Positions 22,936-43,979 of a DNA stretch of 53,643 nucleotides are shown here, one piece after another. Where the stretch lies: the IMG/VR virus record IMGVR_UViG_3300008267_000515, positions 1 to 53,643 of that record, one strand, 5' to 3'. The DNA is from a virus. Taxonomy: Duplodnaviria > Caudoviricetes. Both the position numbers and the translations under genes were made by a program. The notes below the pieces were generated by a model, which did not search any database, was not told the origin of the DNA, and worked only from the letters and a program-made list of their open reading frames with translations. Position 1 is the stretch's first letter. Each line of letters begins with the position of its first letter.

Positions 22936-23589
22936 TCAAGGTGGCGTTGGCAAAGGGTCAGGGAGAATGGAGACGAACATTACCGCAATCACCGCCGACG
23001 AAATTCCCGGGTGGGGAGACGTAGGTGCCACGGCGTCCAAGAGCATATTCAAATGATCTCCGGTCCACATAATTTTAATGTACTGCCCTGCCTGTAGGTC
23101 AATATTGAAGCTCCAGTTAAGCTCAAGCACTCCACCCGACCCGGATATCAAATACTCCCGCGCAGAGTAGCCAATGTCGACGCCGTTGCGGTTAATCCAG
23201 ACGTATGCAATTTTACTGCTTGCGTTAGTACTGCGCAAAATGGCGCTGAACTGAAAATTGTACACGCCCGAGTACGTTGCCGTTATCAGAGTTTCAGTGG
23301 CAGCATCAATGGTAATGGCGTTGTTCAGGTAAGTTTGGTTGAACCGCACCGGCTGAGCGACGTTTATTGTTACGAGCGCTTGGTCCGCGGTATCAAAGAA
23401 CAACCCGTTGGGGCTGTCAATAAACCGGCCACCGTCGGCCCCCGTTACCAAGTTGATGTTGTTGGCAGCTCGGTTAAAAAATAGACGTAGTATGTTATTT
23501 AGATCGCTAAGGTACCCCCGCACCGAGCTCTCAGCGGGAACGGGCAGTGCAGGCGCCTGCAGTTTTTCAATTGAAGACTTACCGGCCAT
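22936..23589 (-). CDS. putative tail/virion structural protein
   Basis: N-terminal APALP…ILRLFFN; beta-rich C-terminus (GVYNFQFS, DLQAGQYI) resembling a TNF/C1q-like jelly roll. Confidence 0.6.
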   Translation of the reverse strand: MAGKSSIEKLQAPALPVPAESSVRGYLSDLNNILRLFFNRAANNINLVTGADGGRFIDSPNGLFFDTADQALVTINVAQPVRFNQTYLNNAITIDAATETLITATYSGVYNFQFSAILRSTNASSKIAYVWINRNGVDIGYSAREYLISGSGGVLELNWSFNIDLQAGQYIKIMWTGDHLNMLLDAVAPTSPHPGISSAVIAVMFVSILPDPLPTPP

Positions 23590-24572
23590 CAGCCTCTCCT
23601 GCCATCAGGTCGCAGGTCTATTCTCGGAATGCCCAGTTTCCACGTAACGCCAAGCCCGGTTGACTCAATCTTCACCGCAATCTGCCGACCTCTGATACGA
23701 ACGAAAGCCTGCCCAGTAAACTCTTCAATCGGCACCGAGGCAGAGCGCACAACCGAGCTTGAACTATTGCCCCCAGCAGAGAGCGGGTTGTTGTACCCAG
23801 AACCTGAGTTTTCCAACGGCAGCAGTGTCATGGTGGCCGAAGGCGAACCGGCGGTTGAACCCACAAACGTCATGTCGGGCAGGATACGGTTTATCATCAT
23901 AAACTTGTCGCCTTCGTCCAACGAAAACTCACCGGAAGTAATTGTCGCGGTGATTGCAACGGCGGTGCCCAGTTCGTTAGAGTCGACCCCATTCTCGTGG
24001 TATACCAAGTTATTGCTAAACGTGGCTGCTAACGGGTAGTTGCGAAGGTCTGAATCCAGCCACGCCGCGCGGCTAAGGCTGCCGTAGTACCAAATACTTT
24101 CTATGTAGTTATAGACCACGTACAAGTCGTTTTGAGTGGCATCGGCAGACGGATAGAACCACCACACCTCGTCAAACTGCTCTATCGTGCCACAGACAAC
24201 TTGGTCAAACTGATTTGGGTTAATGTCGTTGAACACGTAGCTTCTGACAGAACAGGGCAGTGTCTTGACCGTACCGTCGTAGTAGTAAAACTTGTCTTTC
24301 CCCATCCAGTACGCGACGTTGTTTGCGTAGATTGTCGCGTTAGGGCTTATGACTGTGATGTTATCACCAAGCAGCTGCGCTCCCCACACGTCAGGAGCGC
24401 CTAAGTACTGCAGACCGTAAAGTGCAGCGTCCGTAAACACCAGAATTTCTTGTCGCGCTTGTCTAATAGTAATGATCTCGGTGCCCTTGGACACGCGCAG
24501 GCTCCCCGCTTGGTTAGTAGCGGAGGGCGTCCAATTCGCTACGTCTTCTTGATCTGACCAACGGATCAGCAT
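23589..24572 (-). CDS. C-terminal part of a P22 gp10-like tail/DNA-stabilisation protein
   Basis: IRWSDQED, YWMG…FYYYDG, EVWWFY, C-terminal PDGRRG; the frame is open upstream to about 24638 (SDIFRFAFCFGSNELG…DPM). Confidence 0.7.
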   Translation of the reverse strand: MLIRWSDQEDVANWTPSATNQAGSLRVSKGTEIITIRQARQEILVFTDAALYGLQYLGAPDVWGAQLLGDNITVISPNATIYANNVAYWMGKDKFYYYDGTVKTLPCSVRSYVFNDINPNQFDQVVCGTIEQFDEVWWFYPSADATQNDLYVVYNYIESIWYYGSLSRAAWLDSDLRNYPLAATFSNNLVYHENGVDSNELGTAVAITATITSGEFSLDEGDKFMMINRILPDMTFVGSTAGSPSATMTLLPLENSGSGYNNPLSAGGNSSSSVVRSASVPIEEFTGQAFVRIRGRQIAVKIESTGLGVTWKLGIPRIDLRPDGRRG

Positions 24573-24600
24573 TGGGTCAAGGGCTGCGCTGCCAAGTTCG

Positions 24601-25413
24601 TTAGAACCAAAACAAAACGCAAACCGGAAGATGTCCGATCAAAGTGGACACAAAAACAGCACGAGTGTTAACGCCGTTATCCGCTTCCCAATAATACGGT
24701 TGGCCGCCACGGTAAGTAAAAAATAAGTCCTCACCAAAGTTGTTCTGGCTCCACAACCGCATCGGAGCAAGTGTTGTTTCACCAATTCCCCACTCACCAA
24801 AACCCCATCGCCCAGCACCCCACCCGGCAAACGGCACTTCAATCGCGTTGCCTACTGGTATCTGGTAAGCCGCTACCGTTGCCGATCCGCCGTTACCTAC
24901 GTCAGACGCATTAGCTGTTGCTGTGGCTACAATCGTGTAAGTGTTGGCAGTGGGGACCGTGGCGACGGTGTACTCTTTGTTTATTACCACCGCTGTGATG
25001 TTACCGCCCAGACTTACGGCGCCAGAGAAAGTAACGTAATCGCCCTGCTGCGCACCATGAGCTGTTTCAGTGACTGTCAAAATAGCAGAGCCGTTAGTCG
25101 CAGCAAACGTCGCGTCTCCGGCAGCGGTAGTCAGTCGAATCGGCGTCACGTCAAAGTAAGCACCGCCTCGCTCAATGTAGTACTTGAGGTTTGTGCCCAC
25201 GGACACGAGGTTCTGCCCAGACAGCGTGCTCCAGTTAGTTAGGGACCGCGCTATACCGAGGTACGTAGACGAGGATACCCGCTCCCAGCCGCCTATCTTC
25301 TGGGGCAAGCCAAAGCGGAACCTGACCTTATTGATGTCATACCACGTGCCTTCGGCTGAGTACCGCGTGTTTTCTCGGTTGACACCGGCTTTGAATTGTA
25401 TTTTCTTCAACAT
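24601..25413 (-). CDS. N-terminal part of the same tail protein (frame broken near 24640)
   Basis: MLKKIQFKAGVNRE…KVRFR…PQKIGGW; WGAGRWG; WSQNNFGEDL; aberrant tail HLPVCVLFWF. Confidence 0.7.
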   Translation of the reverse strand: MLKKIQFKAGVNRENTRYSAEGTWYDINKVRFRFGLPQKIGGWERVSSSTYLGIARSLTNWSTLSGQNLVSVGTNLKYYIERGGAYFDVTPIRLTTAAGDATFAATNGSAILTVTETAHGAQQGDYVTFSGAVSLGGNITAVVINKEYTVATVPTANTYTIVATATANASDVGNGGSATVAAYQIPVGNAIEVPFAGWGAGRWGFGEWGIGETTLAPMRLWSQNNFGEDLFFTYRGGQPYYWEADNGVNTRAVFVSTLIGHLPVCVLFWF

Positions 25414-25440: not shown

Positions 25441-25926
25441 TTAACCGCCGGACAAGAATAGCACTCTTTCAGCTTCTCTGCGACGCACAAGACCTTGCAG
25501 GACTTTACCGCTGGACTTGTTCCACTTCAGGAACTCGTTTGCCGCGCCGTCGTAGTCACCGCGATTGTACTTCATTCGGAGCGTAGATGATTGCAGGTTG
25601 CCTAGTCCCACGTTGAAACTAAAGCTGACAAGCGCGTCAAACTGAGGCTGACTATCATCACTAGCAGGACATAGTCGGGATACTCCATTCTCAAATCTTT
25701 GTAAATCTTGTTCAAGTAACGTATCAATTTCGTCATTGGCAAACACCCGATTGTGTTCAGTCCGCAGCGAGTACGCTGATCTCTCAGGCGTCTTTAACCG
25801 CGCCTGCTCAGGGTACAGCACGTGGCCGTAACCGACGGTGTAAAGCAGCGCGGGGCACTTGTAGGGCATATTGTGGCAGCCTTCAAAAGACTTGATTAGC
25901 TGAATGCCAGCCTCAGATGTCTTCAC
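25441..25926 (-). CDS. endolysin, GH24 (T4/P21-like) lysozyme
   Basis: LIKSFEGC, E-x8-C-x5-T triad, TVGYGH, FDALVSFSFNVG, GLVRRREAE. Confidence 0.93.
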   Translation of the reverse strand: MKTSEAGIQLIKSFEGCHNMPYKCPALLYTVGYGHVLYPEQARLKTPERSAYSLRTEHNRVFANDEIDTLLEQDLQRFENGVSRLCPASDDSQPQFDALVSFSFNVGLGNLQSSTLRMKYNRGDYDGAANEFLKWNKSSGKVLQGLVRRREAERVLFLSGG

Positions 25927-26405
25927 TTATTAAACGCTCTTCCGCCGAAGTGGAACGCAATAATAGCTGCAAGGATACTCATCTCATCATCACTGAACAC
26001 CATGTTCATCGCGTCAGCAAAAGCCACGCCAGTGCTGTAGGCATACCAGATGCCCGCAATATCCACGACGACTAATAGCAAAACAAAAATGTACGTCACG
26101 ATGGGCCTGACAGAGACTCGCAAGTTAATCGCCCACGTAGACGCACCTTCACCAATCTTCATGTCGTGTTTCCACATAGCCAACTTCTCTTGGGCCTGTG
26201 TCTGCATGGCAATCTGCTCGGTCTTGATCTCTTCAACCCGCGCTTGGGCAACAAAGCCCTCCTTAGCAAGTGCGATCTCGCGCTCACGATTAGCAGCCAT
26301 CAGCGCCAGTTCGTGCTTCTTGTCACCCCGGTCTTGGACGAAATCCAGCACCTTCGGCAGACCGCCAGAGGCAAAGCCCAGCAGTGTAGATATTAATGCC
26401 ATCAT
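25923..26405 (-). CDS. putative holin (GTA-type 3TM-like)
   Basis: W…LRVSVRPIVTY, TM segments and FHFGGR; directly upstream of the endolysin. Confidence 0.65.
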   Translation of the reverse strand: MMALISTLLGFASGGLPKVLDFVQDRGDKKHELALMAANREREIALAKEGFVAQARVEEIKTEQIAMQTQAQEKLAMWKHDMKIGEGASTWAINLRVSVRPIVTYIFVLLLVVVDIAGIWYAYSTGVAFADAMNMVFSDDEMSILAAIIAFHFGGRAFNK

Positions 26406-26659
26406 TGTTTGTTACCTCGGCATGGGGGTTCAGCATCGGCGTTACTGAGTTTTACGCCAGCAAGAAGGCCGATAAAGCCCCCGATAATTGTTTGGAAAGC
26501 AGGGGAGATCAGTTTGAAGACTTCTGCGTTGTCGATATTGTCAAACCAGAGGCCGACAACTAGCGCAATGACCATTACCAGCACAGAGAAACAAAGCGTG
26601 GCAGAGACCATGAGTGTCACCGCGAATGTGAGCTTGCCTTTCATGTCACTTTCGTTCAT
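26402..26659 (-). CDS. small two-TM membrane protein
   Basis: Two hydrophobic helices; coupled to the holin gene. Confidence 0.6.
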   Translation of the reverse strand: MNESDMKGKLTFAVTLMVSATLCFSVLVMVIALVVGLWFDNIDNAEVFKLISPAFQTIIGGFIGLLAGVKLSNADAEPPCRGNKQ

Positions 26660-26662
26660 TCC

Positions 26663-27142
26663 CTACCCCCTGAGTTTTTCAATGATACCGACAACAAACG
26701 CGACGAGCGTTCCAGTCAGACCCGCGATAGCCGCAATCGTTGCGCTGTTCATAATGAAGTTTCGCATCTTGCGCCGCTGTGTCGCTTCAGTCGCGGTACG
26801 CGTTTCCTTGATCTTCATCCTGTCGCGGATCATGTCTTTGTACGCATCAACGCCGTAACGGTAGACGATCAGCTCGCGCAATTCCTTTTCCTGCTGCTCA
26901 ATCTTTTTACGGCGCATCAGGTTCTGCATCGCTTCTTGTTCGACCGAGCCTTTGTACAGCAGCTTCTTAAATAACGGGGGGTTCTTGGCTTCTTCCTCGG
27001 CTGCCTTTACGTCTGCAACAGCACCAAACCAAGTGCCGAGCTGCCCACCCATGTCCTCAATCTCACGGCCCATCTCAATGCCACGCTTGATCGCACTGTA
27101 CGCAGCGTTTGCAAGAGCGAAGGCCGAGACGGGATCAATCAT
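26663..27142 (-). CDS. hypothetical protein with C-terminal TM helix
   Basis: MIDPVSAFALA…AIKRGIE N-terminus; charged core; hydrophobic C-terminus. Confidence 0.7.
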   Translation of the reverse strand: MIDPVSAFALANAAYSAIKRGIEMGREIEDMGGQLGTWFGAVADVKAAEEEAKNPPLFKKLLYKGSVEQEAMQNLMRRKKIEQQEKELRELIVYRYGVDAYKDMIRDRMKIKETRTATEATQRRKMRNFIMNSATIAAIAGLTGTLVAFVVGIIEKLRG

Positions 27143-27393
27143 TCTGGACCATCTCCACCATTGATTTTAGCCCACGCACCCAGCATCAGGATGCCCAGAA
27201 CAAACACTGTTCCTGCCTTGGCAATGGTCTGCCAAACAACTTTCTTCATGCCGCGCCAATCACCAACTAAGGATCGCAATTCGCGTACATCGTTGCCCGC
27301 GTCATCGTCGTGCAGGCCGACTTCTTTGAGGACAGATTTCATCTCTTCGCGGACTATCATGCGTAGGGCTATTTCAGCATCGTGAGTCCTCAA
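27139..27393 (-). CDS. coiled-coil plus C-terminal TM protein
   Basis: 84-aa ORF; TM segment AGTVFVLGILMLGAW; start uncertain. Confidence 0.6.
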   Translation of the reverse strand: MRTHDAEIALRMIVREEMKSVLKEVGLHDDDAGNDVRELRSLVGDWRGMKKVVWQTIAKAGTVFVLGILMLGAWAKINGGDGPE

Positions 27394-27796
27394 CCAGTTT
27401 GGTAATTAAATCCACGTAGTAGGTGGGGTAATCGCACTCTGCCGTCACTCGCACATCGTACTGCTCAGGCGGGACAAAGAGCCGATTGGTATCCTCAAAG
27501 CGCCCTGCTTTAATGCGATCTACCCACACTACAAAGTCTGCATTAAACACCTTTCGGGTGGTCTCGGTGGGGCAAACAAAATCCGCAATAACATTTCCAT
27601 ACTTACCGGCTATGTCACACAGGTGCCCCATCCTGCGGGCTTGCTCGATCCTGTCCTCAAAGCTAAAACCCAAGTCCTTGTTGATGTGCTTACGGATGTC
27701 GTCTGCGTTAAAGTGCGGACACCGCAGTCGTTCTGCCAGAGCTGTCGCCAGTGTGGTCTTACCGGCGTTGGGCAATCCCATCACAAGGATTTTCAC
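27374..27796 (-). CDS. cysC: adenylylsulfate (APS) kinase-like P-loop kinase
   Basis: GLPNAGKTT P-loop; NADDIR; DLGFSFEDRIEQARR; ADFVCP; PPEQYD; shorter than cellular CysC. Confidence 0.75.
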   Translation of the reverse strand: MKILVMGLPNAGKTTLATALAERLRCPHFNADDIRKHINKDLGFSFEDRIEQARRMGHLCDIAGKYGNVIADFVCPTETTRKVFNADFVVWVDRIKAGRFEDTNRLFVPPEQYDVRVTAECDYPTYYVDLITKLVEDSRC

Positions 27797-28185
27797 AGCA
27801 GAGCATCAAGCTCGTCGTGAGTCGTAGCAGCTTCAATCGCAGCGATCTTAGGCGCAACGGCGTCCTTAGCAGCTTGCAACTTAGCCGGGTCATAGGCAGT
27901 CGGGTCGTTCATCTGCTTCTGCATCTCTTGTTGAAAACCAAAGCTGGCATTTGCCTTCATGCCGTTCTTACGGTCTGCAACTTCAATGTTGTAAGTGCCG
28001 TACACAATCTGCACTGGGTCAGTGGTCAGATCAAACGTGTGGGCAGTGTAGCCCTGACGGTGTGCAGTGATAGCAGGGCGTACTTCAACGGCATTCTTCC
28101 AGCCATCGTTGCCCACGCCAGCAGGTGGCAAAGTGTCCCAGCATTGTTTAACTTCGTTGTTCTGTACTTGTACGTAAAGTGCCAT
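27793..28185 (-). CDS. putative tail-fibre assembly/accessory protein
   Basis: AGGAG RBS; follows the propeller genes; C-terminal AIEAATTHDELDALL is typical of fibre chaperones. Confidence 0.55.
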   Translation of the reverse strand: MALYVQVQNNEVKQCWDTLPPAGVGNDGWKNAVEVRPAITAHRQGYTAHTFDLTTDPVQIVYGTYNIEVADRKNGMKANASFGFQQEMQKQMNDPTAYDPAKLQAAKDAVAPKIAAIEAATTHDELDALL

Positions 28186-28216
28186 TGTTGTTACTCCTAG
28201 TGTAAAAAGTTAAGAT

Positions 28217-29371
28217 TTAAACTGCTATTGTGCACGATTGCCCAGTTGTTATTTGAAACCAAACACCAGAACCCACCTGCACAGGGCTGGAACGGTTAGT
28301 TGCGTCGCCCAGACCTAATTGACCGGAGGTGTTTTTCCCCCAAGCCCATAATGTGCCGTCTGTTTTGATAGAAAAAGCTTGCCCCTCACCGCCAGAAGCC
28401 ACCGTTAGCCAAGTAGTCAATGCACCAACTTGTTTGGGTGAATTATAAGATGTAGTGTTTCCTAAACCTAACGACCCAACAGCGCCGTAACCCCATGTCC
28501 AAAGAGTACCGTCTGTCTTAGAAGCAACAGCGTTTGCATAATAACCGCCGCCAGACACATTTAACCACGCCGTTAATGCGCCTACCTGCTTAGGACTAGA
28601 ATAACTAGTTGAATTTCCCAAACCAAGTGCGCCGGTATTATTTTTACCCCAAGACCAGAGTGTGCCATCGGTCTTGATGGCCCAAGTTGAATAACTTGTG
28701 GCTACCTTCAACCAACTAGTAAGTGCGCCGACTTGAACAGGTGATGAATAGTTAGTTACGTTGCCTAAGCCTAATTGGCCATTGGCGTTTACTCCCCACG
28801 CCCATAGCGTACCGTCCGTCTTAATGGCTAAAGAAGAACCGACAAGATAATTTCCACCTGCAAAACTTAACCAGTTTGTAAGTGAACCAACTTGCTTGGG
28901 GGAAGAATAGTTGGTTGTATTACCTAAACCTAATCTGCCTGAATTACCCGAACCCCATGCCCAAAGAGTGCCATCTGTTTTTATGGCAACACAACTTTGC
29001 CTTACTTGATATACCTTCAACCACGTAGTCAAAGCGCCAACTTGTTTAGGAGATGAATAGTTGGTGGTGTTTCCTAAACCTAGCTGTCCAGAGGAATTAG
29101 CTCCCCATGTCCAAAGGGTTCCGTCAGATGCAACCGCAGCAGCAGCATTGTCGCTGATTGAGGCAGATCGCCAGTACAAAGCTCCAACGTGTTTAGGTGA
29201 GGAATAGGTAGTGGTGTTGCCTAAGCCAAGTTGACCGCTGCCATTTATCCCCCAGCTATACAGCTCAAAAGTGTTATAAGCCGCAGGCCAAGTCCCCAAC
29301 GCCTTAGCATTAGCTTGGCTGCTGAGGTTCCAGATTCCACTGTATTGAACGCCTGATATGATTATGGGCAT
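28217..29371 (-). CDS. RCC1/BLIP-II-repeat beta-propeller protein (7 repeats), type B'
   Basis: About 50-aa repeats KTDGTLWxWGxNxxGQLGLGNxTxYSSPKQVG; N-terminal SGVQYSGIW. Confidence 0.92.
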   Translation of the reverse strand: MPIIISGVQYSGIWNLSSQANAKALGTWPAAYNTFELYSWGINGSGQLGLGNTTTYSSPKHVGALYWRSASISDNAAAAVASDGTLWTWGANSSGQLGLGNTTNYSSPKQVGALTTWLKVYQVRQSCVAIKTDGTLWAWGSGNSGRLGLGNTTNYSSPKQVGSLTNWLSFAGGNYLVGSSLAIKTDGTLWAWGVNANGQLGLGNVTNYSSPVQVGALTSWLKVATSYSTWAIKTDGTLWSWGKNNTGALGLGNSTSYSSPKQVGALTAWLNVSGGGYYANAVASKTDGTLWTWGYGAVGSLGLGNTTSYNSPKQVGALTTWLTVASGGEGQAFSIKTDGTLWAWGKNTSGQLGLGDATNRSSPVQVGSGVWFQITTGQSCTIAV

Positions 29372-29378
29372 AGTTGTC

Positions 29379-30503
29379 TCAGTATTTAAGGGCTATGGTA
29401 CGGGAACGCCCACCAGCAGTTTTATACCACGTAGTGAGTGCGCCTACTTGGTTAGGGGATGAACGGTAAGTCACATTACCCAAGCCTAGTTGCCCAAATT
29501 GACTATTGCCCCAAGACCAAAGAGTTCCATCAGTTTTAATAGCTAGTGAAAAACCAAAACCGCCCGCAATCACTGACCAGCTAGTTAAAGCTCCTATTTG
29601 TTTTGGGGAAGAGTAATAAGTGAGGTTGCCTAAGCCAAGTTGACCGTTTTGGTTTTTTCCCCAAGCGTAAAGCGCGCCTGCTGTTGTAGTTGCTAGGGTG
29701 TGGTAGTTTCCGCACGCAACAGTGAGCCACGTAGTTAATACACCAACCTGTTTGGGAGACGAGTAAGCAGTTGTGTTCCCTAAGCCAAGCTGTCCATCTG
29801 AGTTAGCTCCCCAAGACCATAGAGTGCCATCGGTTTTAGTAGCTACGGTTAAGGCAGAACCTGCGGCAATTTTATACCACGTAGTTAATGCACCTACCTG
29901 TTTTGGACTAGAGTAGTATGTAGTGTTGCCTAAACCAAGTACACCTTGTGTACCAGCTCCCCAAGACCATAGCGTTCCATCGGTTTTAATTGCAATAGCA
30001 CTGCTAGTGCATGACGCAATAGTTGACCACGTAGTTAAAGCACCTATTTGTACTGGTGAGGAGTAACTGGTTGTATTTCCTAAACCTAATTGTCCTGCCG
30101 ATCCTTTTCCCCAAGACCACAATGTACCGTTTGTTTTAATGGCTAATGAAAAAGCATACCCACACGCAACAGTGAGCCACGTAGTGAGTGCGCCTATTTG
30201 TTTTGGGGATGAGTAGTAAGTTGTGTTGCCTAACCCCAATCTGCCATTTGCATTTACACCCCAAGACCAAAGAGTTCCATCTGCTTTAGCTGCAATTGTA
30301 TGGTACTGCCCACACGCAATACTTAACCAATTAGTTAATGCACCAACTTGTTTAGGGCTAGAGTAGTTAGTGAGGTTGCCTAAACCAAGCTGCCCATACG
30401 CTCCTTGCCCCCAACTATACAGCTCATAGGTAAACGTAGTCGTCTGCGCCCCCAGAGCATTAAACCCCGGCTTGTTTATGCCAGAACCGTATCTAAAGCT
30501 CAT
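29379..30503 (-). CDS. RCC1-repeat beta-propeller protein (7 repeats), type A'
   Basis: Same repeats; N-terminal KPGFNALGAQT. Confidence 0.92.
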   Translation of the reverse strand: MSFRYGSGINKPGFNALGAQTTTFTYELYSWGQGAYGQLGLGNLTNYSSPKQVGALTNWLSIACGQYHTIAAKADGTLWSWGVNANGRLGLGNTTYYSSPKQIGALTTWLTVACGYAFSLAIKTNGTLWSWGKGSAGQLGLGNTTSYSSPVQIGALTTWSTIASCTSSAIAIKTDGTLWSWGAGTQGVLGLGNTTYYSSPKQVGALTTWYKIAAGSALTVATKTDGTLWSWGANSDGQLGLGNTTAYSSPKQVGVLTTWLTVACGNYHTLATTTAGALYAWGKNQNGQLGLGNLTYYSSPKQIGALTSWSVIAGGFGFSLAIKTDGTLWSWGNSQFGQLGLGNVTYRSSPNQVGALTTWYKTAGGRSRTIALKY

Positions 30504-32269
30504 CCAACGCTCCTCAGCATGGGCTTCTCGCCCAAGCGGTTTCTAATGTGGTCAAACGGAGCTTCCCACTCGCCAAAGGTCTCCTGACGGAACAGCTTCA
30601 TTGTATCGTAGTAAGGGCAGGTATCGCCCTCCATTGCGTACATAAAGTAGCCCATCACCGGGATCACGACCCAAGTCTCTACGCCCATCGCAGCAGCCAA
30701 GTGACTTACCGAAGTGCAGGAGGATATTACCAAATCACATGACGCAACAGCATTGCGGGTGTCTTCCCAAGTGTTCAACGGAACCTGCTTCACCCACGCT
30801 GGGCACGAGTCAGCGCCCTCGTCTCTCTGTAGGCTAATGAACTCAGCATCACAGTCCTTCACAGCATGGAACATCAGCTCGTATGGAAACTTCTTGTGAT
30901 GCTCATGTTCAAACTTAGACTGACCCTGCCATCTAAGCCCAATGCGCTTCTTGCGGTTCTTAATTGTCTTAGGCTTGGCGATGTACGGAGCGCCCGACAG
31001 GTCGTCTAGTTCTAGTCCCAACGGCACCACAGCGGACATACCCTGCACAAAGTAGTCATGGTAAATGCCAAAGGTAGCCTCGTGCTGAATGACTGCACTA
31101 ACGCCTTCTACGCCTACAAACAGACTAGCTAAAGCACCGGAGCAGGACACGACTACCTTGCAGCCACGTTGAGCGATGAGCTTAGCAAAGCGTACTTGGT
31201 GAATCTGGTCGCCTAAGCCGCCTTCTAGGTACAGCATGACGACGCCTTTAGACTTACCGTCCCACGGCTGGGTGGGCACATCAGGACGCTTGTTACCGAA
31301 TACACCTGACTGACGACCACGATCCATCAACTGATAGCCTTTCTGTATTTGCCCTTGTGACAACAAGTACCAGCCTCGGTTGTAGGCTGCTCGATGATTA
31401 GCAGGCTCTTCGGCTTCTAGCTTCTGGGCCAGTCTCCAGCCTTCAGCAAAGTCACCAATAGTAGAAGCAGCTAACTGTAAGTCTAAATCGTGTAGCTCAG
31501 GGATGGTTCTAGGCTGTGGTAGCCAGAACTCAGGCTGGCAGAACGTGCTGTAATGGTGCTTCAGTAAGTCTTTAGGGTCTTGTCTGTGCTGGGCTTCTAG
31601 GACGGGTTTAACATCGTGCATACCGGCAGTGCCGTGAAGTTGCTCGTCATCTTCGGCTACTGTAGAGCCGTCAATGTTATTGAAGTCGTACTCAAACGCA
31701 GGCAGGTCTAGGAAGGCGTGTACCCGCGCCAGTTGCTCTTTAGGGCTGGCGATAAGGTCTTCATACTCTACAAACAGGAAGTTCTCAGGAGCGTAGTTGT
31801 AGCCTTCTTGCAGGGAGATGTACGCAGCCCGCAGGTGATCCATTAACTGACCAGATGCCATGAACTCGTCCAAATCGGCAGGCTTCTCAATGCGGACAAA
31901 GGAAGCAGCGCAGTCAGGGACAGAGCGAACGGTAGCGATGATCTTAGGCTTACGGTCGAGCACTTGCGTCATTGCCGCCATGATCTGGGAGATAGGCCAG
32001 CCCCTAGACTTATCAATCACTACCGGCTTGTCAGTGTCCTCGTAGAACGCATCAATCATCCCGCGCATGGTCTGAGCCAGCTTGGTACGGGTAGGATCGT
32101 TCTGGTTGAGCAATCCAGCAGAGTGCCACGTGTTAGCCAAGCCATCCAGCGCATGAACCAGACCAGACGTAGTGGATACGTGGGTCATGGGGTTCTGGTT
32201 GAGGATAGCCGCTAGGACTGTTGAGCCTGAACGCGGTACGCCTGAGAGAAAGTGTAGTTGTTTTTGCAT
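30500..32269 (-). CDS. sulfotransferase-TPR-glycosyltransferase (GT9-like) fusion
   Basis: 5'-PSB motif GVPRSGSTVL, 3'-PB R-x7-S (RSVPDCAAS), YEDL; TPR-like AAYNRGWYLL; GT-B motifs EGGLGDQI, IGLRWQG, FISLQ, DLVISSCTSVSHLAAAMG. Start at ATG 32269 after AAGGA. Confidence 0.85.
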   Translation of the reverse strand: MQKQLHFLSGVPRSGSTVLAAILNQNPMTHVSTTSGLVHALDGLANTWHSAGLLNQNDPTRTKLAQTMRGMIDAFYEDTDKPVVIDKSRGWPISQIMAAMTQVLDRKPKIIATVRSVPDCAASFVRIEKPADLDEFMASGQLMDHLRAAYISLQEGYNYAPENFLFVEYEDLIASPKEQLARVHAFLDLPAFEYDFNNIDGSTVAEDDEQLHGTAGMHDVKPVLEAQHRQDPKDLLKHHYSTFCQPEFWLPQPRTIPELHDLDLQLAASTIGDFAEGWRLAQKLEAEEPANHRAAYNRGWYLLSQGQIQKGYQLMDRGRQSGVFGNKRPDVPTQPWDGKSKGVVMLYLEGGLGDQIHQVRFAKLIAQRGCKVVVSCSGALASLFVGVEGVSAVIQHEATFGIYHDYFVQGMSAVVPLGLELDDLSGAPYIAKPKTIKNRKKRIGLRWQGQSKFEHEHHKKFPYELMFHAVKDCDAEFISLQRDEGADSCPAWVKQVPLNTWEDTRNAVASCDLVISSCTSVSHLAAAMGVETWVVIPVMGYFMYAMEGDTCPYYDTMKLFRQETFGEWEAPFDHIRNRLGEKPMLRSVG

Positions 32270-32277
32270 GGAATCCT

Positions 32278-33438
32278 TTAAGTTGTTTTGATTGCAAGGG
32301 TAAAGTATGCCCCGCCAGATACAGAACCCCAAGCTGTTAGAGAGCCTACTTGCTTAGGGCTGGAGTATTGAGTGGTATTACCTAACCCTAATTGTCCATT
32401 GGCGTTACCACCCCATGACCACAAAGTGCCGTCAGTTTTAGTTGCTACTGAATGTATGTATCCAGTGGCAATGTTCAGCCAAGTCGTTAAAGCTCCAACT
32501 TGATTAGGGGATGATTTGTATGTGAGGTTGCCTAAGCCAAGTTGACCGTTACTATTTGATCCCCATGACCATAACGCACCGGAAGTAGTAGTTGCCAGTG
32601 TAAAGTTACTTTTATGGGCTATATTAGCCCATGTAGTAAGAGCACCAACTTGTTTTGGTGAAGAGTATGCGGTTATATTGCCCAACCCTAATTGCCCATT
32701 AGCGTTGTACCCCCACGCCCAAAGCGTACCGTCTGTCTTTGTTGCTATCGTAGAATCCGAACCCCCTGCTATTTTAAACCAAGCAGTTAAAGCACCTATT
32801 TGTACTGGCGATGAATAGGAAGTAATGTTGCCTAAACCAAGTCGCCCATTTGCCCCATTTCCCCAAGCCCATATAGTGCCGTCAGTTTTGACAGCCACAG
32901 TGTGATTATTCCCACACGTTATTGCAGACCAAGTAGTAAGTGCGCCTACTTGTTTGGGGCTAGAATAGTTAGTTGTGTTACCTAGACCTAGTTGCCCTGA
33001 AGTATTTAAACCCCAAGTCCACAGCGTACCGTCTGTTTTGATGGACGCAATATAGTTTTTTCCTGTTGCAACTTTGTACCAACTAGTAAGAGCACCGACT
33101 TGTTTGGGCGATGAATAGTTAGTGGTATTGCCTAATCCCAACTGACCAAAAACGTTACGACCCCAAGTCCAAAGCGTCCCATCTGTCTTAGCGGCTACAG
33201 AAAAGTAGGCATCATAGCCCCCGCCTGCAATATTAAGCCAATTAGTTAATGCACCAATTTGTTTAGGAGATGAGTAACTAGTGGTGTTGCTTAACCCTAG
33301 CTGACCGTAAGTGTTTTGCCCCCAACTATACAATTCTGGCAATCCCGTCCAAGTCCCCGCAGCCAAAGCAGCGTTCACCTGATTCATTGTCCAGATGCCT
33401 GAGTATTGAACGCCTGATATTACTGTTGAGGAGGGCAT
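32278..33438 (-). CDS. RCC1-repeat beta-propeller protein (7 repeats), type B
   Basis: Same repeats; N-terminal SGVQYSGIW. Confidence 0.92.
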   Translation of the reverse strand: MPSSTVISGVQYSGIWTMNQVNAALAAGTWTGLPELYSWGQNTYGQLGLSNTTSYSSPKQIGALTNWLNIAGGGYDAYFSVAAKTDGTLWTWGRNVFGQLGLGNTTNYSSPKQVGALTSWYKVATGKNYIASIKTDGTLWTWGLNTSGQLGLGNTTNYSSPKQVGALTTWSAITCGNNHTVAVKTDGTIWAWGNGANGRLGLGNITSYSSPVQIGALTAWFKIAGGSDSTIATKTDGTLWAWGYNANGQLGLGNITAYSSPKQVGALTTWANIAHKSNFTLATTTSGALWSWGSNSNGQLGLGNLTYKSSPNQVGALTTWLNIATGYIHSVATKTDGTLWSWGGNANGQLGLGNTTQYSSPKQVGSLTAWGSVSGGAYFTLAIKTT

Positions 33439-33446
33439 ATTGTTTC

Positions 33447-34430
33447 CTAATACTTAAGAGCTACACAGAAATAAGTGCCCGATACAGAACTCCACGTAGC
33501 AAGTGCCCCTATTTGTTTAGGGGATGAATAACTAGTCGTGTTGCCTAAGCCTAATTGACCGCTGCTATTACTTCCCCAAGACCATAGTGCGCCGTCAGTT
33601 TTTACTGCGCTTGAAGCGTTAGCACCACAAGTCACCTTAGACCACGTAGTTAACGCTCCAACTTGCATAGGGGATGAATAGCTAGTGGTGTTGCCTAACC
33701 CTAGCGCACTAGAACCTCCACTCCCCCACATCCATAGAGTGCCGTTGGTTTTGATTGCTGCGCCTACATAACTAGCCCCTGCAACGGTAGCCCAAGCAGT
33801 AAGTGCGCCTACTTGCATTGGGGAGGAGTAGTAAGTGGTGTTACCCAAACCTAATTGCCCAGTGTTGTTAAGTCCCCATGTCCAAAGCGTACCGTCTGTT
33901 TTAACGGCAAGGCACATACTGGCTCCCCCGCCCGCAATACTTGCCCACGTAGTTAATGCGCCAACTTGTTTGGGAGAAGAATAATCAGTCGTATTACCTA
34001 TACCAAGTTGACCATAAGTGTTTTGTCCCCAAGCCCATAAAGCGCCGCCTTTAATGGCAAGGGAGTGGTAATACCCAACAGCTACTTTAGACCACGTAGT
34101 AAGCGCGCCAACCTGCTTGGGTGAGGAGTAGTAAGTGACGTTATTTAAACCTAGCTGCCCGTTGTTGTTATACCCCCACGCCCAAAGAGTGCCGTCGGTT
34201 TTAGTAGCTAAACAATGGTAGTAACCGGCTGCAATAGTTGACCAAGTAGTAAGTGCGCCAATTTGTACCGGAGATGAGCGATTAGTTGAAGTGCCATCGC
34301 CTAGTTGACCAAGATTATTTTTACCCCAGCTATACAACTCATAGGTAAAAGTCGTGACATTAGTCTGCGCCCCCAAAGCGTTAAACCCCGGCTTGACTAT
34401 GCTACCTAGATTGTTATTCCGGATGCTCAT
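33447..34430 (-). CDS. RCC1-repeat beta-propeller protein (6 repeats), type A
   Basis: Six WG-anchored repeats; N-terminal KPGFNALGAQT. Confidence 0.9.
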   Translation of the reverse strand: MSIRNNNLGSIVKPGFNALGAQTNVTTFTYELYSWGKNNLGQLGDGTSTNRSSPVQIGALTTWSTIAAGYYHCLATKTDGTLWAWGYNNNGQLGLNNVTYYSSPKQVGALTTWSKVAVGYYHSLAIKGGALWAWGQNTYGQLGIGNTTDYSSPKQVGALTTWASIAGGGASMCLAVKTDGTLWTWGLNNTGQLGLGNTTYYSSPMQVGALTAWATVAGASYVGAAIKTNGTLWMWGSGGSSALGLGNTTSYSSPMQVGALTTWSKVTCGANASSAVKTDGALWSWGSNSSGQLGLGNTTSYSSPKQIGALATWSSVSGTYFCVALKY

Positions 34431-34807
34431 TACGCAGCGATGCTCTCATAACTGATCGTGTAAGTGATTCCGCTTGATGTGCCAGACGTAACTACAATGG
34501 AGCTATTCTCCATCAGGTAGATCGCCGTTGTCTTGTCTACCGCTATCACCGAGGCACTCGCTGGCACTGAGATGGTAGAGATAACAGGGAAGTTCGTACC
34601 CGCACCAGCGGCTGCGTTGTTGATGGCTACCGTTGCGTTAACCGCCGAGGAGCCGTTGACGTTAGCGCAGACAATCTGGTTGATCTTAAAGACCAAGCCA
34701 GAAGATGCGGCATTAGACAGCAGCGTGTTGGCCGTTGTGTTAGCAGGGGTAAGGTACGTTGTCGTACCGTAGATTGCGGTTACTGCGACTATATTTGGCG
34801 AAGCCAT
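34430..34807 (-). CDS. tail-fibre-associated beta-sandwich protein
   Basis: MASPNIV…IYLMEN…ISYE; coupled to the RCC1 gene. Confidence 0.65.
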   Translation of the reverse strand: MASPNIVAVTAIYGTTTYLTPANTTANTLLSNAASSGLVFKINQIVCANVNGSSAVNATVAINNAAAGAGTNFPVISTISVPASASVIAVDKTTAIYLMENSSIVVTSGTSSGITYTISYESIAA

Positions 34808-34821
34808 TTGAGTTTCTCCTA

Positions 34822-35328
34822 TTATTGGGCGGCAAACGCGCCGTGGAATTTTTGACGCGCTTCATGGGCAACCAGTTCCGCAAGCTCAAAATCATCAAAA
34901 TATCCGATGTGTTTGATTGCCCGCCTCACGCCTACATACACTTGCCATTTGCTAATACGTTTGTGCCACACAACGCCTTTTGCCCCAGATTTGTTATTCT
35001 TGAACAACCCGCGATTTTGCATGTTTTCGCAACTATCAGCCACTCGAATATTTTCAACACGGTTGTCGAGCGAATTTTTATTGACGTGATCGACCTGCTC
35101 AGGCCACTGCCCGTAGTGCCACAAGTATACAAGTTTATGAACGCAGTAATGCTTTCCGGATATTTTAGTAATTAAGTATTTTTTGTCCGGCCTTTCTGCT
35201 CCACCCGTAGCAATAGAACCTATTTCCCTGCCAATCTGACCAGCAGGGCCACCGACCGCCACTTTGCGAATCAGTGCGCCGTCTTCTCGGTAGTCAAAAA
35301 GCCTGCGGACTTCTTCCTGTGTAATCAC
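34822..35328 (-). CDS. HNH homing endonuclease with AP2 DNA-binding domain
   Basis: HKLVYLW…VDHVNKNSLDNRVENIR…N; SGAKGVVW…KW…IGYF…A AP2 domain. Confidence 0.9.
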   Translation of the reverse strand: MITQEEVRRLFDYREDGALIRKVAVGGPAGQIGREIGSIATGGAERPDKKYLITKISGKHYCVHKLVYLWHYGQWPEQVDHVNKNSLDNRVENIRVADSCENMQNRGLFKNNKSGAKGVVWHKRISKWQVYVGVRRAIKHIGYFDDFELAELVAHEARQKFHGAFAAQ

Positions 35329-35339
35329 GGGGTAGTCTC

Positions 35340-36071
35340 CTACAAACCAAAAATTAACGAGAAAGCGATGGCTTGGCCTACGGAGGCTCCACTCGCTGCT
35401 GGGGTTGCAAACGCTGGTGCGCCACCTGTTGTTGCTGTTAGAACCTGACCAGTGGTGCCTGCTGCTGTTGCTACAGGGACCGCCCCTGCACCGCCGCCGT
35501 ACACAACGCCATACTGCGTAAGCAAAGCCGATGAGGCCAGCGTTCCTGATGCTGTGTATGCAAGGACACCGCCAGAAGTGCCTGAAGCTAAGTTCGTGCC
35601 GCCGTTGGCAACTGGGAGGATACCCGTAACACCAGAAACCAAACTCACCGTGGGGTTTGCCAGCGTGACCGCTGCGCCAGCGCCAGCGCCATCCGTTACT
35701 ATCATCGCCTTTGTGCCGGTGGCAATGGTTATCGTAGCACCAGAGCCCTGAGCAATCGCAATTGACTGACTGCCGCTCGTAGCGTTCTCAATGATCCAGA
35801 CCTTGGATACCGTGTTCGGCCCCAGTGTAACGGTACGCGTTACAGTCAAGGACACTGCAGAGGTGATCTTCAGGTACAGCGAGCGCGTACCGTCAGCCGT
35901 TGCATCCGGCATCGTGAAGGTTTCATTGGCGTCAGCGGCCATCTGCTTGGTGCCAAGGCTAAACGCATCAGCGATCAGAGACAGGTTGGTGTTGGTGCTG
36001 GTGCCCCATGTGCCGTCTTCGTCCCCCGTGGTTATCTCTTTTAGTCGGAGGTCATTTACGTATGATGCCAT
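35340..36071 (-). CDS. tail fibre/baseplate-like protein
   Basis: GTWGTSTNTN N-terminus; LPVANGGT and GQVLT fibre motifs; C-terminal AIAFSLIFG. Confidence 0.7.
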   Translation of the reverse strand: MASYVNDLRLKEITTGDEDGTWGTSTNTNLSLIADAFSLGTKQMAADANETFTMPDATADGTRSLYLKITSAVSLTVTRTVTLGPNTVSKVWIIENATSGSQSIAIAQGSGATITIATGTKAMIVTDGAGAGAAVTLANPTVSLVSGVTGILPVANGGTNLASGTSGGVLAYTASGTLASSALLTQYGVVYGGGAGAVPVATAAGTTGQVLTATTGGAPAFATPAASGASVGQAIAFSLIFGL

Positions 36072-42091: not shown

Positions 42092-42120
42092 TTTATATCA
42101 CGTTGCTGGAGGTAGGTCAA
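42092..42120 (-). promoter_or_regulatory. sigma70 promoter TTGACC-17-TATAAA with TG extension
   Basis: Overlaps the last codons of the GIY-YIG gene; predicted start site about 42085, at the 5' end of the structured RNA. Confidence 0.65.
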
Positions 42121-42940
42121 CGTACTGAAAAACCAAGCCCGTAAATTGACCTTTTGTTATGGGGGAATTGGAGAGCAGCGCGCGTCGAAGCGTGGGCATC
42201 TTCATGCCGTAATGCTGCAGTACTGCGGTTAAGCTTGGGAATTGCATACCCGTTGTGGCCTCTAGCACCTGCTTGCTCATCTTCAGCTTTGACTCTTCCG
42301 AGTGCTTCTTTCCTAGCCAATTCTGGTTGCCCGTATTCGCTATAGAAAGGTTGCGGCGGTGTTCTTCGGTTCGGATGTGCCCCTTGGTGTTTTGGTTCCC
42401 CATCAAAGACGCAGACATTTTCTTTCGGGTTTCCTCTGAGGGGATAAAGCACCCGCCGCGCCCTTCAGCAACAACTTGCTGCACCTTAGCGGATATCAAC
42501 GCCTTAGTTTCATCGGTGTGTTTTTGCCCTGTACGGGGGTCTGAGGTGGTCCACTGATGTTTTGTCGCTATAGAAAGGATGGATTTAGCGTCCGCAGACA
42601 TAACTTTCCCGTAATTGGGGGTTGTATGCGCTGGGGCGTTTCTCCATGGGGCACTCGCGCTATACCCCGAATTGTAACAGTGCTCCTTGCCCACGTGCTG
42701 AACTAGGTATGTGTCCTCCACATCTAACAATGACCGGGTATCGGGCACTTCTTCTATAACTAGGAAGTCAAACTTGGACTCTCCATACTTATTCCACGCG
42801 GCTTGCAAGTGCTTGCAGTGGTGCCTATTCCCCCGTAACAGGTTACGGTGTTGTCGGAACCGTACTTTCTTATTAATAGTGCTGCCGACATAGAACTTGT
42901 CGTTTACTAAGTTGATAATTTTATAGATTACCTGCGTCAT
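42098..42940 (-). CDS. GIY-YIG homing endonuclease with NUMOD3 repeats
   Basis: VIYKIINLVNDKFYVGST…R…H…HLQAAWNKYG…E…YN; repeated HTDETK, SEETRKKMS, HSEESKLKMS. Confidence 0.92.
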   Translation of the reverse strand: MTQVIYKIINLVNDKFYVGSTINKKVRFRQHRNLLRGNRHHCKHLQAAWNKYGESKFDFLVIEEVPDTRSLLDVEDTYLVQHVGKEHCYNSGYSASAPWRNAPAHTTPNYGKVMSADAKSILSIATKHQWTTSDPRTGQKHTDETKALISAKVQQVVAEGRGGCFIPSEETRKKMSASLMGNQNTKGHIRTEEHRRNLSIANTGNQNWLGKKHSEESKLKMSKQVLEATTGMQFPSLTAVLQHYGMKMPTLRRALLSNSPITKGQFTGLVFQYVDLPPAT

Positions 42941-43061: not shown

Positions 43062-43979
43062 TTAGGTCGCGCCCGGAGACCCGAAGATACCCAAGGGGTC
43101 GCTCACTCCGAACGAATATCGCTCACGCGCTTTGTAGCGAGCGTTGCCCGTGTCAAAGTCGGCGTCCATAGATGTCTGCATAGGCGTACGAACAAAGTGC
43201 TTCAGTCCGTTGGGCACGTCAGTCATCAGGAACCACGCGTTCGTGTCGGTCAGGTAGTTGTTAACCGTGTACCCGCCGGGGATAGAACCGTTGTTTTTCA
43301 GGGCGTTGATATCGTTGTCAGCAGTGCCTACACGCAGCTCAGTTTCGAGCAAACGAGTTGCAACGAACTGCAGCGCGGGAGGGATCACCAACTTGCTCGG
43401 CTTGGCAGCGATCAACAGGCCACGTTCATCAGTCCACGCAGCGATCTGAATAACGGCGGCTTCCAAGGAAGTCTCGTTCAAGTCAGCGCCAGTGGTAGGA
43501 CGGTTACTGTTAGTTCCACCAGACACCAGCGGGTGCGCGGTAGAGCACAACACCTGACCGTCGCCGTATGTCGGATTGCCCGACCCAGTGAACGCGGTGT
43601 TAAGGATAGCAGCAGCCTTTACTTGCTTGGTGTATGCCATAGCACGGGCCAGCGCTTTGGTATAACGAGTAGACAGTGAGTCATACAGGTTATCTTCAAC
43701 AGCTTCTTCAGTGATGGAGAAGCCCATTGCGATGGTTTCGTGAGTGTAGCGAGCAGTAAACGCTTCTTGCGCGTTATCGTAAGAAATAGCGGAGCCTTCG
43801 TTTTTAACGGGGGCAGCGCCAAAGCCAGACAGCTTAGTTTCTTCTTCAAACGAACGGTCCGAACTTTCGGTCTCATAAATCTCGGCGTGTTGCTCGCCGT
43901 ATCTTGCGTACTCCATGCCAAACAGAGCATTAAGCCCCGGAAGCAGTTCTTTGAGTAGCTGTGCACGTGAAATAGCCAT
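43062..43979 (-). CDS. major capsid protein (Mu gpT-like, HK97 fold)
   Basis: MAISRAQLLKELLPGLNALFG…DGQVLCSTAHP…LVIPPAL…YLTDTNAWFL…RERYSFG; strong RBS; followed by a terminator. Confidence 0.88.
   Translation of the reverse strand: MAISRAQLLKELLPGLNALFGMEYARYGEQHAEIYETESSDRSFEEETKLSGFGAAPVKNEGSAISYDNAQEAFTARYTHETIAMGFSITEEAVEDNLYDSLSTRYTKALARAMAYTKQVKAAAILNTAFTGSGNPTYGDGQVLCSTAHPLVSGGTNSNRPTTGADLNETSLEAAVIQIAAWTDERGLLIAAKPSKLVIPPALQFVATRLLETELRVGTADNDINALKNNGSIPGGYTVNNYLTDTNAWFLMTDVPNGLKHFVRTPMQTSMDADFDTGNARYKARERYSFGVSDPLGIFGSPGAT

Follow-up and report, generated by a model that had tools for sequence, protein, structure and literature searches.

A module at 27374-34430 of the virus record IMGVR_UViG_3300008267_000515, whose 53,643 bases (completeness estimate 86%) we call the window, sets a sulfotransferase-glycosyltransferase fusion among four genes for RCC1 beta-propellers and closes with a compact gene resembling adenosine-5'-phosphosulfate (APS) kinase. 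The whole set is encoded on the minus strand, flanked by tail-fibre-like genes and the lysis cassette, and is transcribed in the order RCC1 B1, RCC1 A1, fusion, RCC1 B2, RCC1 A2, u130 (a conserved small gene) and kinase, with stop/start overlaps at the fusion/RCC1 B2 junction (ATGA) and the u130/kinase junction (GTGA). The domains of this module have recognizable identities and folds, and its genes stay linked across distant lineages. From these observations we tentatively favor a reading to which we give a little under an even chance, namely that this late-operon cassette heptosylates and sulfates the phage's own RCC1 proteins in the host cytoplasm, with the kinase acting as a dispensable booster of 3'-phosphoadenosine-5'-phosphosulfate (PAPS).

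The proposed mechanism would begin with recognition of the propellers by a linker resembling tetratricopeptide repeats (TPRs) and by a domain with the fold of glycosyltransferase family 9 (GT9), both in the fusion. The GT9-fold domain would move heptose from ADP-heptose onto hydroxyl residues of the blade loops (T-x-Y/R-S-S-P), and the fused PAPS-dependent sulfotransferase domain would then sulfate the sugar, or possibly a loop tyrosine. The 140-residue kinase would phosphorylate APS to PAPS and so raise donor supply, which would be helpful but dispensable. Both donors are cytoplasmic and are used at the cytoplasmic face of the membrane, and E. coli makes both.

The fusion gene occupies 30500-32269 (minus strand) and encodes 589 residues. 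We place its start at the ATG at 32269 because the 120 listed homologues are about 589 residues long (564-601, mostly 589) and AAGGA precedes this ATG; the first 21 codons of the 610-residue open reading frame (ORF) at 30500-32332 lie outside the gene. Near-length homologues numbered 1224 among the 8000 candidates scored. The AlphaFold2 (AF2) model, built from a 50-sequence alignment, has a predicted local distance difference test score (pLDDT) of 94 and a predicted template-modelling score (pTM) of 0.80.

Residues 1-258 of the fusion (31496-32269, minus strand) form a sulfotransferase domain that matches Sulfotransfer_3 at E 1.3e-15, over residues 28-213 in the numbering of the 610-residue ORF, and belongs to PF13469 with 58.7 bits against a cut-off of 27 and with its PAPS motifs present. 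An earlier note on this DNA had pointed to two PAPS-binding motifs, GVPRSGST and R-x7-S, and both are confirmed: none of P12, R13, G15, S16, T17, R115 and S123 varies among 10 fusions that share 39-86% identity with the window's, so that the residues of the 5'-phosphosulfate-binding (5'-PSB) loop and of the 3'-phosphate-binding (3'-PB) site (R115-x7-S123) are all kept. The closest folds are the tyrosylprotein sulfotransferases TPST1/2 (PDB 5wrj, 3ap1; Z 18.4-19.3, root-mean-square deviation (rmsd) 3.5-4.0, 236-241 residues aligned). The curacin and olefin-synthase sulfotransferases come second, about 3 Z units lower (Z 16.2-16.3). Polyketide and carbohydrate sulfotransferases span Z 14-16, with heparan sulfate 3-O-sulfotransferase (3-OST) at about 14. 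The 5'-PSB loop GVPRSG(S/T)T is identical in TPST2 and the fusion, at an overall TPST identity to the domain of 14-16% and with phmmer reaching just E 0.28-0.95.

The linker that follows (residues 259-341; 31247-31495, minus strand, assigned from AF2 secondary structure) had been described as TPR-like; its helical nature is borne out by four helices at 261-321 in the AF2 model, whereas the Pfam repeat profile TPR_17 gives just E 0.21. The remaining residues, 342-589 (30500-31246, minus strand), form a GT-B domain assigned by structure alignment to the GT9, or heptosyltransferase, fold. Residues 342-583 superpose on WaaC at Z 16.4 (range 16.0-16.4; rmsd 3.1, 229 residues), followed by WaaF (15.8), a Veillonella GT9 enzyme (3tov; 15.6) and TibC (15.2-15.6), so that all four are tied within about 1 Z unit. 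E349, G353 and D354 are nearly invariant in 50 sequences, and the near-invariant Gly-Asp of the LEGGLGDQ motif sits where GT9 enzymes, as we take it, have their N-terminal Asp. The GT9-like character claimed for this domain thus stands on its fold and on a homologue, P0244 (E 1.2e-144 to the fusion), which matches Pfam GT9 PF01075 at 2.7e-31 and 109 bits in five stretches and carries long TPR arrays ahead of each of its five GT9 units; on the window's own protein the Pfam match falls short of significance, with 12.9 bits against a cut-off of 22 (E 0.069) for the C-terminal 316 residues. Besides P0244, about 100 other representatives are giant proteins of 1400-3100 residues with 3-6 tandem TPR-GT9 copies behind long TPR arrays. 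A scan of viral contigs with P0242 returned no match.

The four co-oriented RCC1 propeller genes of the earlier note are borne out. RCC1 B1 (33447-34430, minus strand) encodes 327 residues with 6 Pfam repeats (RCC1 5e-69, WD40_RLD 3.1e-82) and an N-terminus of the 'GxNKPGFNALGAQT' type, and RCC1 A1 (32278-33438, minus strand; 386 residues, 7 blades, RCC1 8.7e-82 in 7 stretches) has one of the 'GVQYSGIW...AAGTW' type and a stop 8 nucleotides (nt) ahead of the fusion start. RCC1 B2 (29379-30503, minus strand; 374 residues, 7.5e-84) and RCC1 A2 (28217-29371, minus strand; 384 residues, 7e-67) have 7 blades each. All four belong to PF00415 by a wide margin (222-277 bits against a cut-off of 21.7, 6-7 stretches each), contain 23% Ser+Thr and about 2% Asp+Glu, and are built of unusually regular repeats of about 50 residues, KTDGTLWSWG-N-x-x-GQLGLGNTT-x-YSSPKQVGALTTW. 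We presume that these propellers are distal fibre or receptor-binding parts, which would make them virion proteins.

The link between the GT9 part and RCC1 genes holds over a wide range of relatives, in loci that are related, so that the counts are not independent events. The close clade comprises 80 viral loci with a fusion sharing 71-98% identity with the window's; 78 of the fetched loci contain one or more RCC1 genes, mostly abutting the fusion, and the two without one start just 82 and 252 nt before the fusion. Every close locus with at least 2.6 kb upstream and u130 in view (57/57) has 1-4 flanking RCC1 genes. A distant phage clade (GC 34-39%, fusion 37-47% identical) keeps the order RCC1-fusion-u130 in 5/5 loci, with single or double propellers. 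A scan of a genome collection, queried with a 10-sequence fusion alignment, gave an RCC1 ORF in 17 of 30 loci. Among these are full fusions of 43-58% identity, whose records bear the labels of many different phyla, and, in Bdellovibrionales-labelled records, stand-alone TPR-GT9 genes beside multi-propeller proteins of 770-1081 residues. The 13 genome-collection loci without RCC1 are mostly short contigs, and L177, L187, L198 and L199 lack it despite several kb of flank. As a control, among 80 loci anchored on the kinase, RCC1 occurs in 19 of the 23 with a GT9 part and in 1 of the 57 without one (570 kb), and that single locus is a contig truncated within this very module. Given how widely these loci range in identity, GC content and genome type, we argue for a functional tie between the GT9 part and RCC1.

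Two of the multi-propeller proteins (L190:2135-5380 and L193:7082-9394) start with twin-arginine-like leaders judged by eye (RRRFLQ, RRDFLK), as would suit a folded protein that is modified in the cytoplasm and then exported.

The module has a third constant member that the earlier note had not included. The 130-residue protein u130 (27793-28185, minus strand), always encoded downstream, is found in 72 of the 80 close loci, the other 8 of which end too early, and in 5/5 distant loci. It has no Pfam, PHROG or NCBIfam match, and an Atlas search returned its own unnamed viral clusters along with leads of at most 0.90 to Caudo_TAP, DUF2977 and Phage_tail_APC, which are too weak to use. We rejected u130 as a PF16778-type tail assembly chaperone after a profile comparison with the L085 protein gave a probability of 0.1.

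Gene context in two distant relatives points to heptose as the probable sugar. Locus L167 continues after the module with an FkbM methyltransferase, heptose genes, a cupin and a HAD phosphatase, the best matches being heptose-7-phosphate kinase (1.3e-31), heptose-1-phosphate adenylyltransferase (1.3e-38) and ADP-heptose 6-epimerase (3.7e-68); L169 continues with a methyltransferase and an ADP-heptose 6-epimerase (2.2e-64). All of these heptose-gene matches lie below the equivalog cut-offs. Together with the GT9 fold, these genes suggest that the donor is probably ADP-heptose.

The kinase gene (27374-27796, minus strand, GTG start) encodes 140 residues that match Pfam APS_kinase at 4.2e-13 and phrog_10255 at 4.4e-29. 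Its description as CysC-like stands on Pfam membership (PF01583, 50 bits against 21.1, yet just profile positions 5-91 of 152) and on a whole-length fold, and does not extend to NCBIfam, whose cut-off it misses by far. In its AF2 model (pLDDT 93.3), the top five representatives are APS kinases, which superpose at Z 16.2-18.1 and rmsd 1.5-2.2 over 124-140 of the 140 residues with 25-29% identity. In sequence, too, APS kinases are its closest relatives. Across 34 family members, N30, A31, D32, R35, F44 and R49 never vary, and the LGFS-x-EDR-x-EQ-x-RR motif can be aligned with its counterpart in human PAPSS1. The likeness to CysC (PF01583, TIGR00455) takes in the P-loop, NADD-x-R, the LGFS-x-EDR-x-EQ-x-RR motif and the superposition over the whole length. 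The window's protein differs in its size, 140 residues against 143-209 in the listed solved APS-kinase chains, in having Asn for the first Asp of the CysC DGD, and in a lid region that is, from a sequence comparison against what we take to be the usual CysC layout, shortened. The family counts 1902 homologues of 77-245 residues, and both of its subtypes (LGFS-EDR and DWDFS-EGR) occupy the slot after u130. From its genomic context, the kinase probably makes PAPS, the sulfate donor.

The kinase also keeps company with sulfotransferases outside this module. A stand-alone match to the sulfotransferase domain occurs in 12 of the 57 kinase loci without a GT9 part. L092 and L098-L108 encode a stand-alone Sulfotransfer_3 protein near the kinase, 28-31% identical to the fusion's N-terminal domain by tblastn; its gene abuts the kinase in L099, L103 and L107 and lies one ORF away in L092, and Pfam confirmed Sulfotransfer_3 on both proteins scanned (L099, 2.4e-17; L092, 6e-14). 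In L146, a Sulfotransfer_2 gene (1.2e-7) stands three genes from the kinase. L187 carries cysD (451 bits, cut-off 195), cysN (549, cut-off 336) and then a 143-residue kinase, followed by a homologue of the sulfotransferase domain and, further on, a TPR-GT9 gene. In L177, a protein whose C-terminal part exceeds the apsK cut-off (218 against 138.7 bits) is encoded about 1.1 kb beyond a 795-residue fusion homologue. Two proteins that look sulfotransferase-like by eye, a 241-residue 'PPKTGSTT' protein in L085 and a 186-residue protein in L096, reached just E 0.02-0.04 and were not used as evidence.

The idea that the kinase boosts PAPS for a sulfotransferase therefore gains from its repeated adjacency to different sulfotransferase families and from the cysD-cysN cluster, but the kinase is not obligatory. 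The earlier note had treated kinase, fusion and propellers as one system; across genomes the distribution of these gene types is not independent, yet they fall into two linked pairs, GT9-RCC1 and kinase-sulfotransferase, and it is the fusion that unites them.

A number of observations, beyond the relatedness of the loci counted above, weigh against the reading that the cassette modifies the phage's own propellers. With WaaC, WaaF and TibC within 1 Z unit of one another, the fold of the GT domain leaves a protein acceptor and a lipid-linked acceptor indistinguishable, and characterized GT9 enzymes mostly build lipopolysaccharide (LPS) cores. Among 10 further ORFs scanned in the window, there is no ADP-heptose or sulfur gene, so that the host would have to supply ADP-heptose.

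The earlier note had proposed the N-x-T/S sequons of the propellers as acceptor sites, and these sequons are abundant (N-x-S/T, 9-16 per protein). Over 1049 repeats from 185 RCC1 ORFs, the loop of the close clade reads G-N(70%)-T(71%)-T(79%)-x-Y(61%)/R(21%)-S(86%)-S(93%)-P(90%). The repeats inspected in four distant-clade propellers mostly show Asp in place of this Asn and Arg in place of the Tyr. The acceptor idea falls on this point, the sequon being 70% conserved in the close clade and mostly replaced in the distant one. The change of the loop tyrosine to Arg is also relevant to a TPST-type acceptor. Common to both clades is T-x-R/Y-S-S-P-x-Q-V-G alone, which we take to be a generic bacterial RCC1 repeat, as is presumably the window's first blade, GDGTSTNRSSPVQIG; the Ser/Thr-rich loop would thus be generic as well. 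We rejected N-glycosylation of the N-x-T sequons because they are not conserved in the distant clade and because the fold is GT9 and not that of the N-glycosyltransferases (NGT/GT41); SPY and OGT are weak fold matches to the fusion (Foldseek E 4e-5 to 3e-4). Protein-acting GT9 relatives are described as O-linking to Ser (PMC4358343). If the propellers are substrates, the conserved loop Ser/Thr residues would be the likeliest sites, by analogy with TibC and FlmG. A co-fold of the whole fusion with RCC1 A1 scored 0.01 against a mark of 0.32, which says nothing either way.

A different role would be remodelling of the host envelope, in which the fusion would heptosylate and sulfate a lipid-linked host glycan (LPS core, capsule or exopolysaccharide (EPS) precursor) at the cytoplasmic face of the membrane and the propellers would be mere neighbouring fibre genes; such remodelling might hide receptors or keep new virions from being trapped on cell debris. 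Among the best folds for the GT domain are two LPS heptosyltransferases, WaaC and WaaF (Z 15.8-16.4), the fold family of the sulfotransferase domain includes carbohydrate sulfotransferases such as heparan sulfate 3-OST (Z about 14), and use of both donors at the cytoplasmic face suits a lipid-linked acceptor equally. Viral metagenomes are also reported to carry waaC/waaF-type genes (PMC8066274). We nevertheless consider envelope remodelling unlikely, since the GT9 part tracks RCC1 and not phage type or host, even at 37-47% identity and in bacterial chromosome-like records, a pattern that unrelated genes would hardly produce, and since the gene sits in the late structural operon of an apparently lytic phage and not in a lysogenic-conversion module. 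The TPR-type module further suggests a protein partner, by analogy with what PMC7591256 describes for FlmG.

The fusion might instead act on another phage protein, such as a 243-residue or 287-residue fibre, or on a small molecule, or the propellers might be partners that are not substrates (lectin-like adaptors or scaffolds). Pairs of stand-alone sulfotransferase and kinase beside non-RCC1 fibre genes (L095-L108) would fit such a role, and the conserved u130 and u125 (a 125-residue protein encoded just upstream of RCC1 B1) carry no assigned one. RCC1 and u130 alone stay with the fusion across distant clades, however, and other fibre genes change, which makes this explanation quite improbable.

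The kinase is absent from 12 of the 66 observable close loci and from 5/5 distant loci, which makes it an accessory and not a core part of the module; in the other 54 close loci it follows u130 (52) or lies about 3.2 kb away (2), and a further 14 loci are unobservable. No match to the sulfotransferase-domain profile was found in 45 of the 57 kinase loci without a GT9 part. In cultured phages, the family's neighbours are a topoisomerase and MazG in Salvo and glucosyltransferases and nucleotidyltransferases in phiRSL1. The window's protein scores 45.4 bits against a TIGR00455 apsK cut-off of 138.7, and sequence profiles cover its N-terminal half alone. The suggestion that phage cysC should be reinterpreted as a virion-modification gene therefore goes too far, as this 140-residue family falls below the NCBIfam cut-offs and also occurs without a detectable sulfotransferase.

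It is conceivable, though somewhat unlikely, that the 140-residue protein is no APS kinase and phosphorylates some other nucleotide or sugar phosphate, perhaps as part of nucleotide or NAD-type metabolism, its position being incidental. The low NCBIfam scores and half-length profile alignments would agree with this, as would the gluconate kinases that come next in the fold ranking (Z 14.8-15.4), just 2-3 Z units behind, the many members fused to or followed by a cytidylyltransferase-like or nicotinamide mononucleotide adenylyltransferase (NMNAT)-like domain, and the members beside an adenylosuccinate-synthetase homologue or DNA-metabolism genes. Yet the roughly 50 listed Foldseek matches, with TM 0.76-0.85 by query length, consist entirely of APS kinases and APS-kinase-like domains, the residues of the APS-binding motif are invariant, and the kinase repeatedly adjoins three different sulfotransferase types, with a compact homologue following cysD-cysN.

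The fused or following domain, of about 120 residues with a GRFQPFHDGH motif, is seen in L133, L143, L162, L175 and L001 (Salvo), and a domain of this type precedes a bona fide APS kinase in L177; it could be a minimal ATP sulfurylase, giving a tiny PAPS synthase, or a hint at another substrate. In L151, L155 and L162, the kinase-nucleotidyltransferase fusion comes directly after the adenylosuccinate-synthetase homologue (PF00709 9e-80 in L151), a context unrelated to sulfation.

The favored reading, cytoplasmic heptosylation and sulfation of the phage's own propellers, has partial parallels in known systems. The bacterial autotransporter heptosyltransferases (BAHT), TibC acting on TibA and AAH on AIDA-I, are described in PMC4358343 as cytoplasmic ADP-heptose enzymes, of the GT-B type with a GT9-like fold, that hyperglycosylate a repeat-rich, beta-structured adhesin. 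TibC aligns to fusion residues 328-589 (Z 15.2-15.6, rmsd 3.2-3.4, 242-244 residues) at 11-12% identity; unlike the BAHT enzymes, the fusion model lacks an N-terminal beta-barrel and has the sulfotransferase domain and helical linker ahead of the glycosyltransferase instead, a sulfotransferase being fused to the enzyme here, and the putative substrate is a beta-propeller, not a beta-helix. WaaC, WaaF and the Veillonella GT9 enzyme (PDB 2h1f, 1psw and 3tov) are the best folds to residues 342-588 (Z 15.6-16.4); the fusion departs from such LPS enzymes in carrying a TPR-like module and a sulfotransferase, and its genomic partner is RCC1, not an LPS core cluster.

FlmG of Caulobacter is a flagellin O-glycosyltransferase whose N-terminal domain binds its flagellin substrates (PMC7591256). 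The likeness lies in the architecture alone: the enzyme is soluble and cytoplasmic, and its N-terminal part binds the substrates and so directs a C-terminal glycosyltransferase to several paralogous structural proteins before these are exported or assembled. FlmG uses a pseudaminic acid donor and a flagellin acceptor and is not known to have a sulfotransferase. In mycobacteriophages, virion proteins are said to be decorated by glycosyltransferases that the phage encodes close to its structural genes (e.g., PMC11256854); those cases have capsid or tail-tube acceptors and other glycosyltransferase families, with neither sulfation nor RCC1. A literature search, supplementary files aside, found no paper on a module of RCC1, GT9 and sulfotransferase in phages.

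The module belongs to a minus-strand late block that spans nearly everything from 12.3 kb to the end of the window, with terminase, portal and major head protein at 43-51 kb, tail and virion proteins at 35-39 kb, and further virion and ejection proteins and a DarB-like giant protein elsewhere. The terminase is about 40% identical to those of the Pelagibacter phages HTVC023P and HTVC027P and of some cyanophages. Against cultured phages, megablast of the region gave no DNA-level match, and tblastn with the fusion hit 12 records only, none spanning both halves.

Just upstream of RCC1 B1 lies u125 (34430-34807, minus strand), whose tblastn matches are 41-94% identical and stand upstream of the RCC1 genes in most close loci; it has no family match in Pfam, PHROG or NCBIfam scans. 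A 243-residue tail-fibre-like gene (35340-36071, minus strand; phrog_31104 3.5e-10), with homologues in related loci, opens the distal structural block. Between the two, an HNH endonuclease gene (34822-35328, minus strand; PF13392 3.1e-10, phrog_99 1.1e-53) looks like a recent mobile insertion, as tblastn found it in just 1 of 80 related loci (L032). Directly downstream of the kinase comes the lysis cassette (25441-27393, minus strand), with an endolysin (phrog_7, 1.1e-51) and four small ORFs that look like membrane proteins by eye.

The relatives nearest in kinase (92%) and endolysin (98%), L085 and L086, are without the RCC1-fusion-u130 block and carry in its place (L085:1349-5723 and L086) a Gly-rich fibre-like gene, three 2-oxoglutarate (2OG)-Fe(II) oxygenases, a PF16778 tail assembly chaperone and the 241-residue protein with the PKTGSTT loop, so that the block behaves as an exchangeable cassette. 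Elsewhere in the window, a homing-endonuclease gene (42098-42940, minus strand; phrog_314 6.5e-35, also a GIY-YIG-motif family) sits immediately downstream of the gene for the major head protein (43062-43979). A virion structural gene (phrog_3287; 23589-25413, minus strand) is split by a frameshift near residue 260-274 into ORFs of 270 and 327 residues; it is intact in the close relative L086, as one 622-residue ORF 97-98% identical to both pieces, and the frameshift is either an assembly error or a genuine break. The gene at 12364-16209 (minus strand) encodes a 1281-residue protein whose C-terminal 400 residues match DarB-like antirestriction/giant virion proteins (phrog_10089 2.8e-30).

If the favored reading is true, phage receptor-binding proteins can carry sulfated sugars installed by an enzyme, and host range, adsorption and recognition would be affected beyond what the gene sequence predicts. 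It would also assign a role to phage sulfotransferases and to 'cysC-like' genes, which tend to be catalogued as auxiliary genes of sulfur metabolism, and would extend protein heptosylation from autotransporter adhesins to beta-propellers. Judged by the 1224 near-length fusion homologues, the module is abundant. A broader version is possible but doubtful: that aquatic phages and Bdellovibrio-like predators hyper-heptosylate RCC1 blade loops in the cytoplasm and then sulfate them, the phages bringing their own miniature PAPS supply in the form of the 140-residue APS kinase, in some lineages fused to a small nucleotidyltransferase with a possible role as minimal ATP sulfurylase. Such a pathway, if true, would provide the first sulfated virion proteins, a new class of GT9 substrate and the first function of a phage sulfotransferase.

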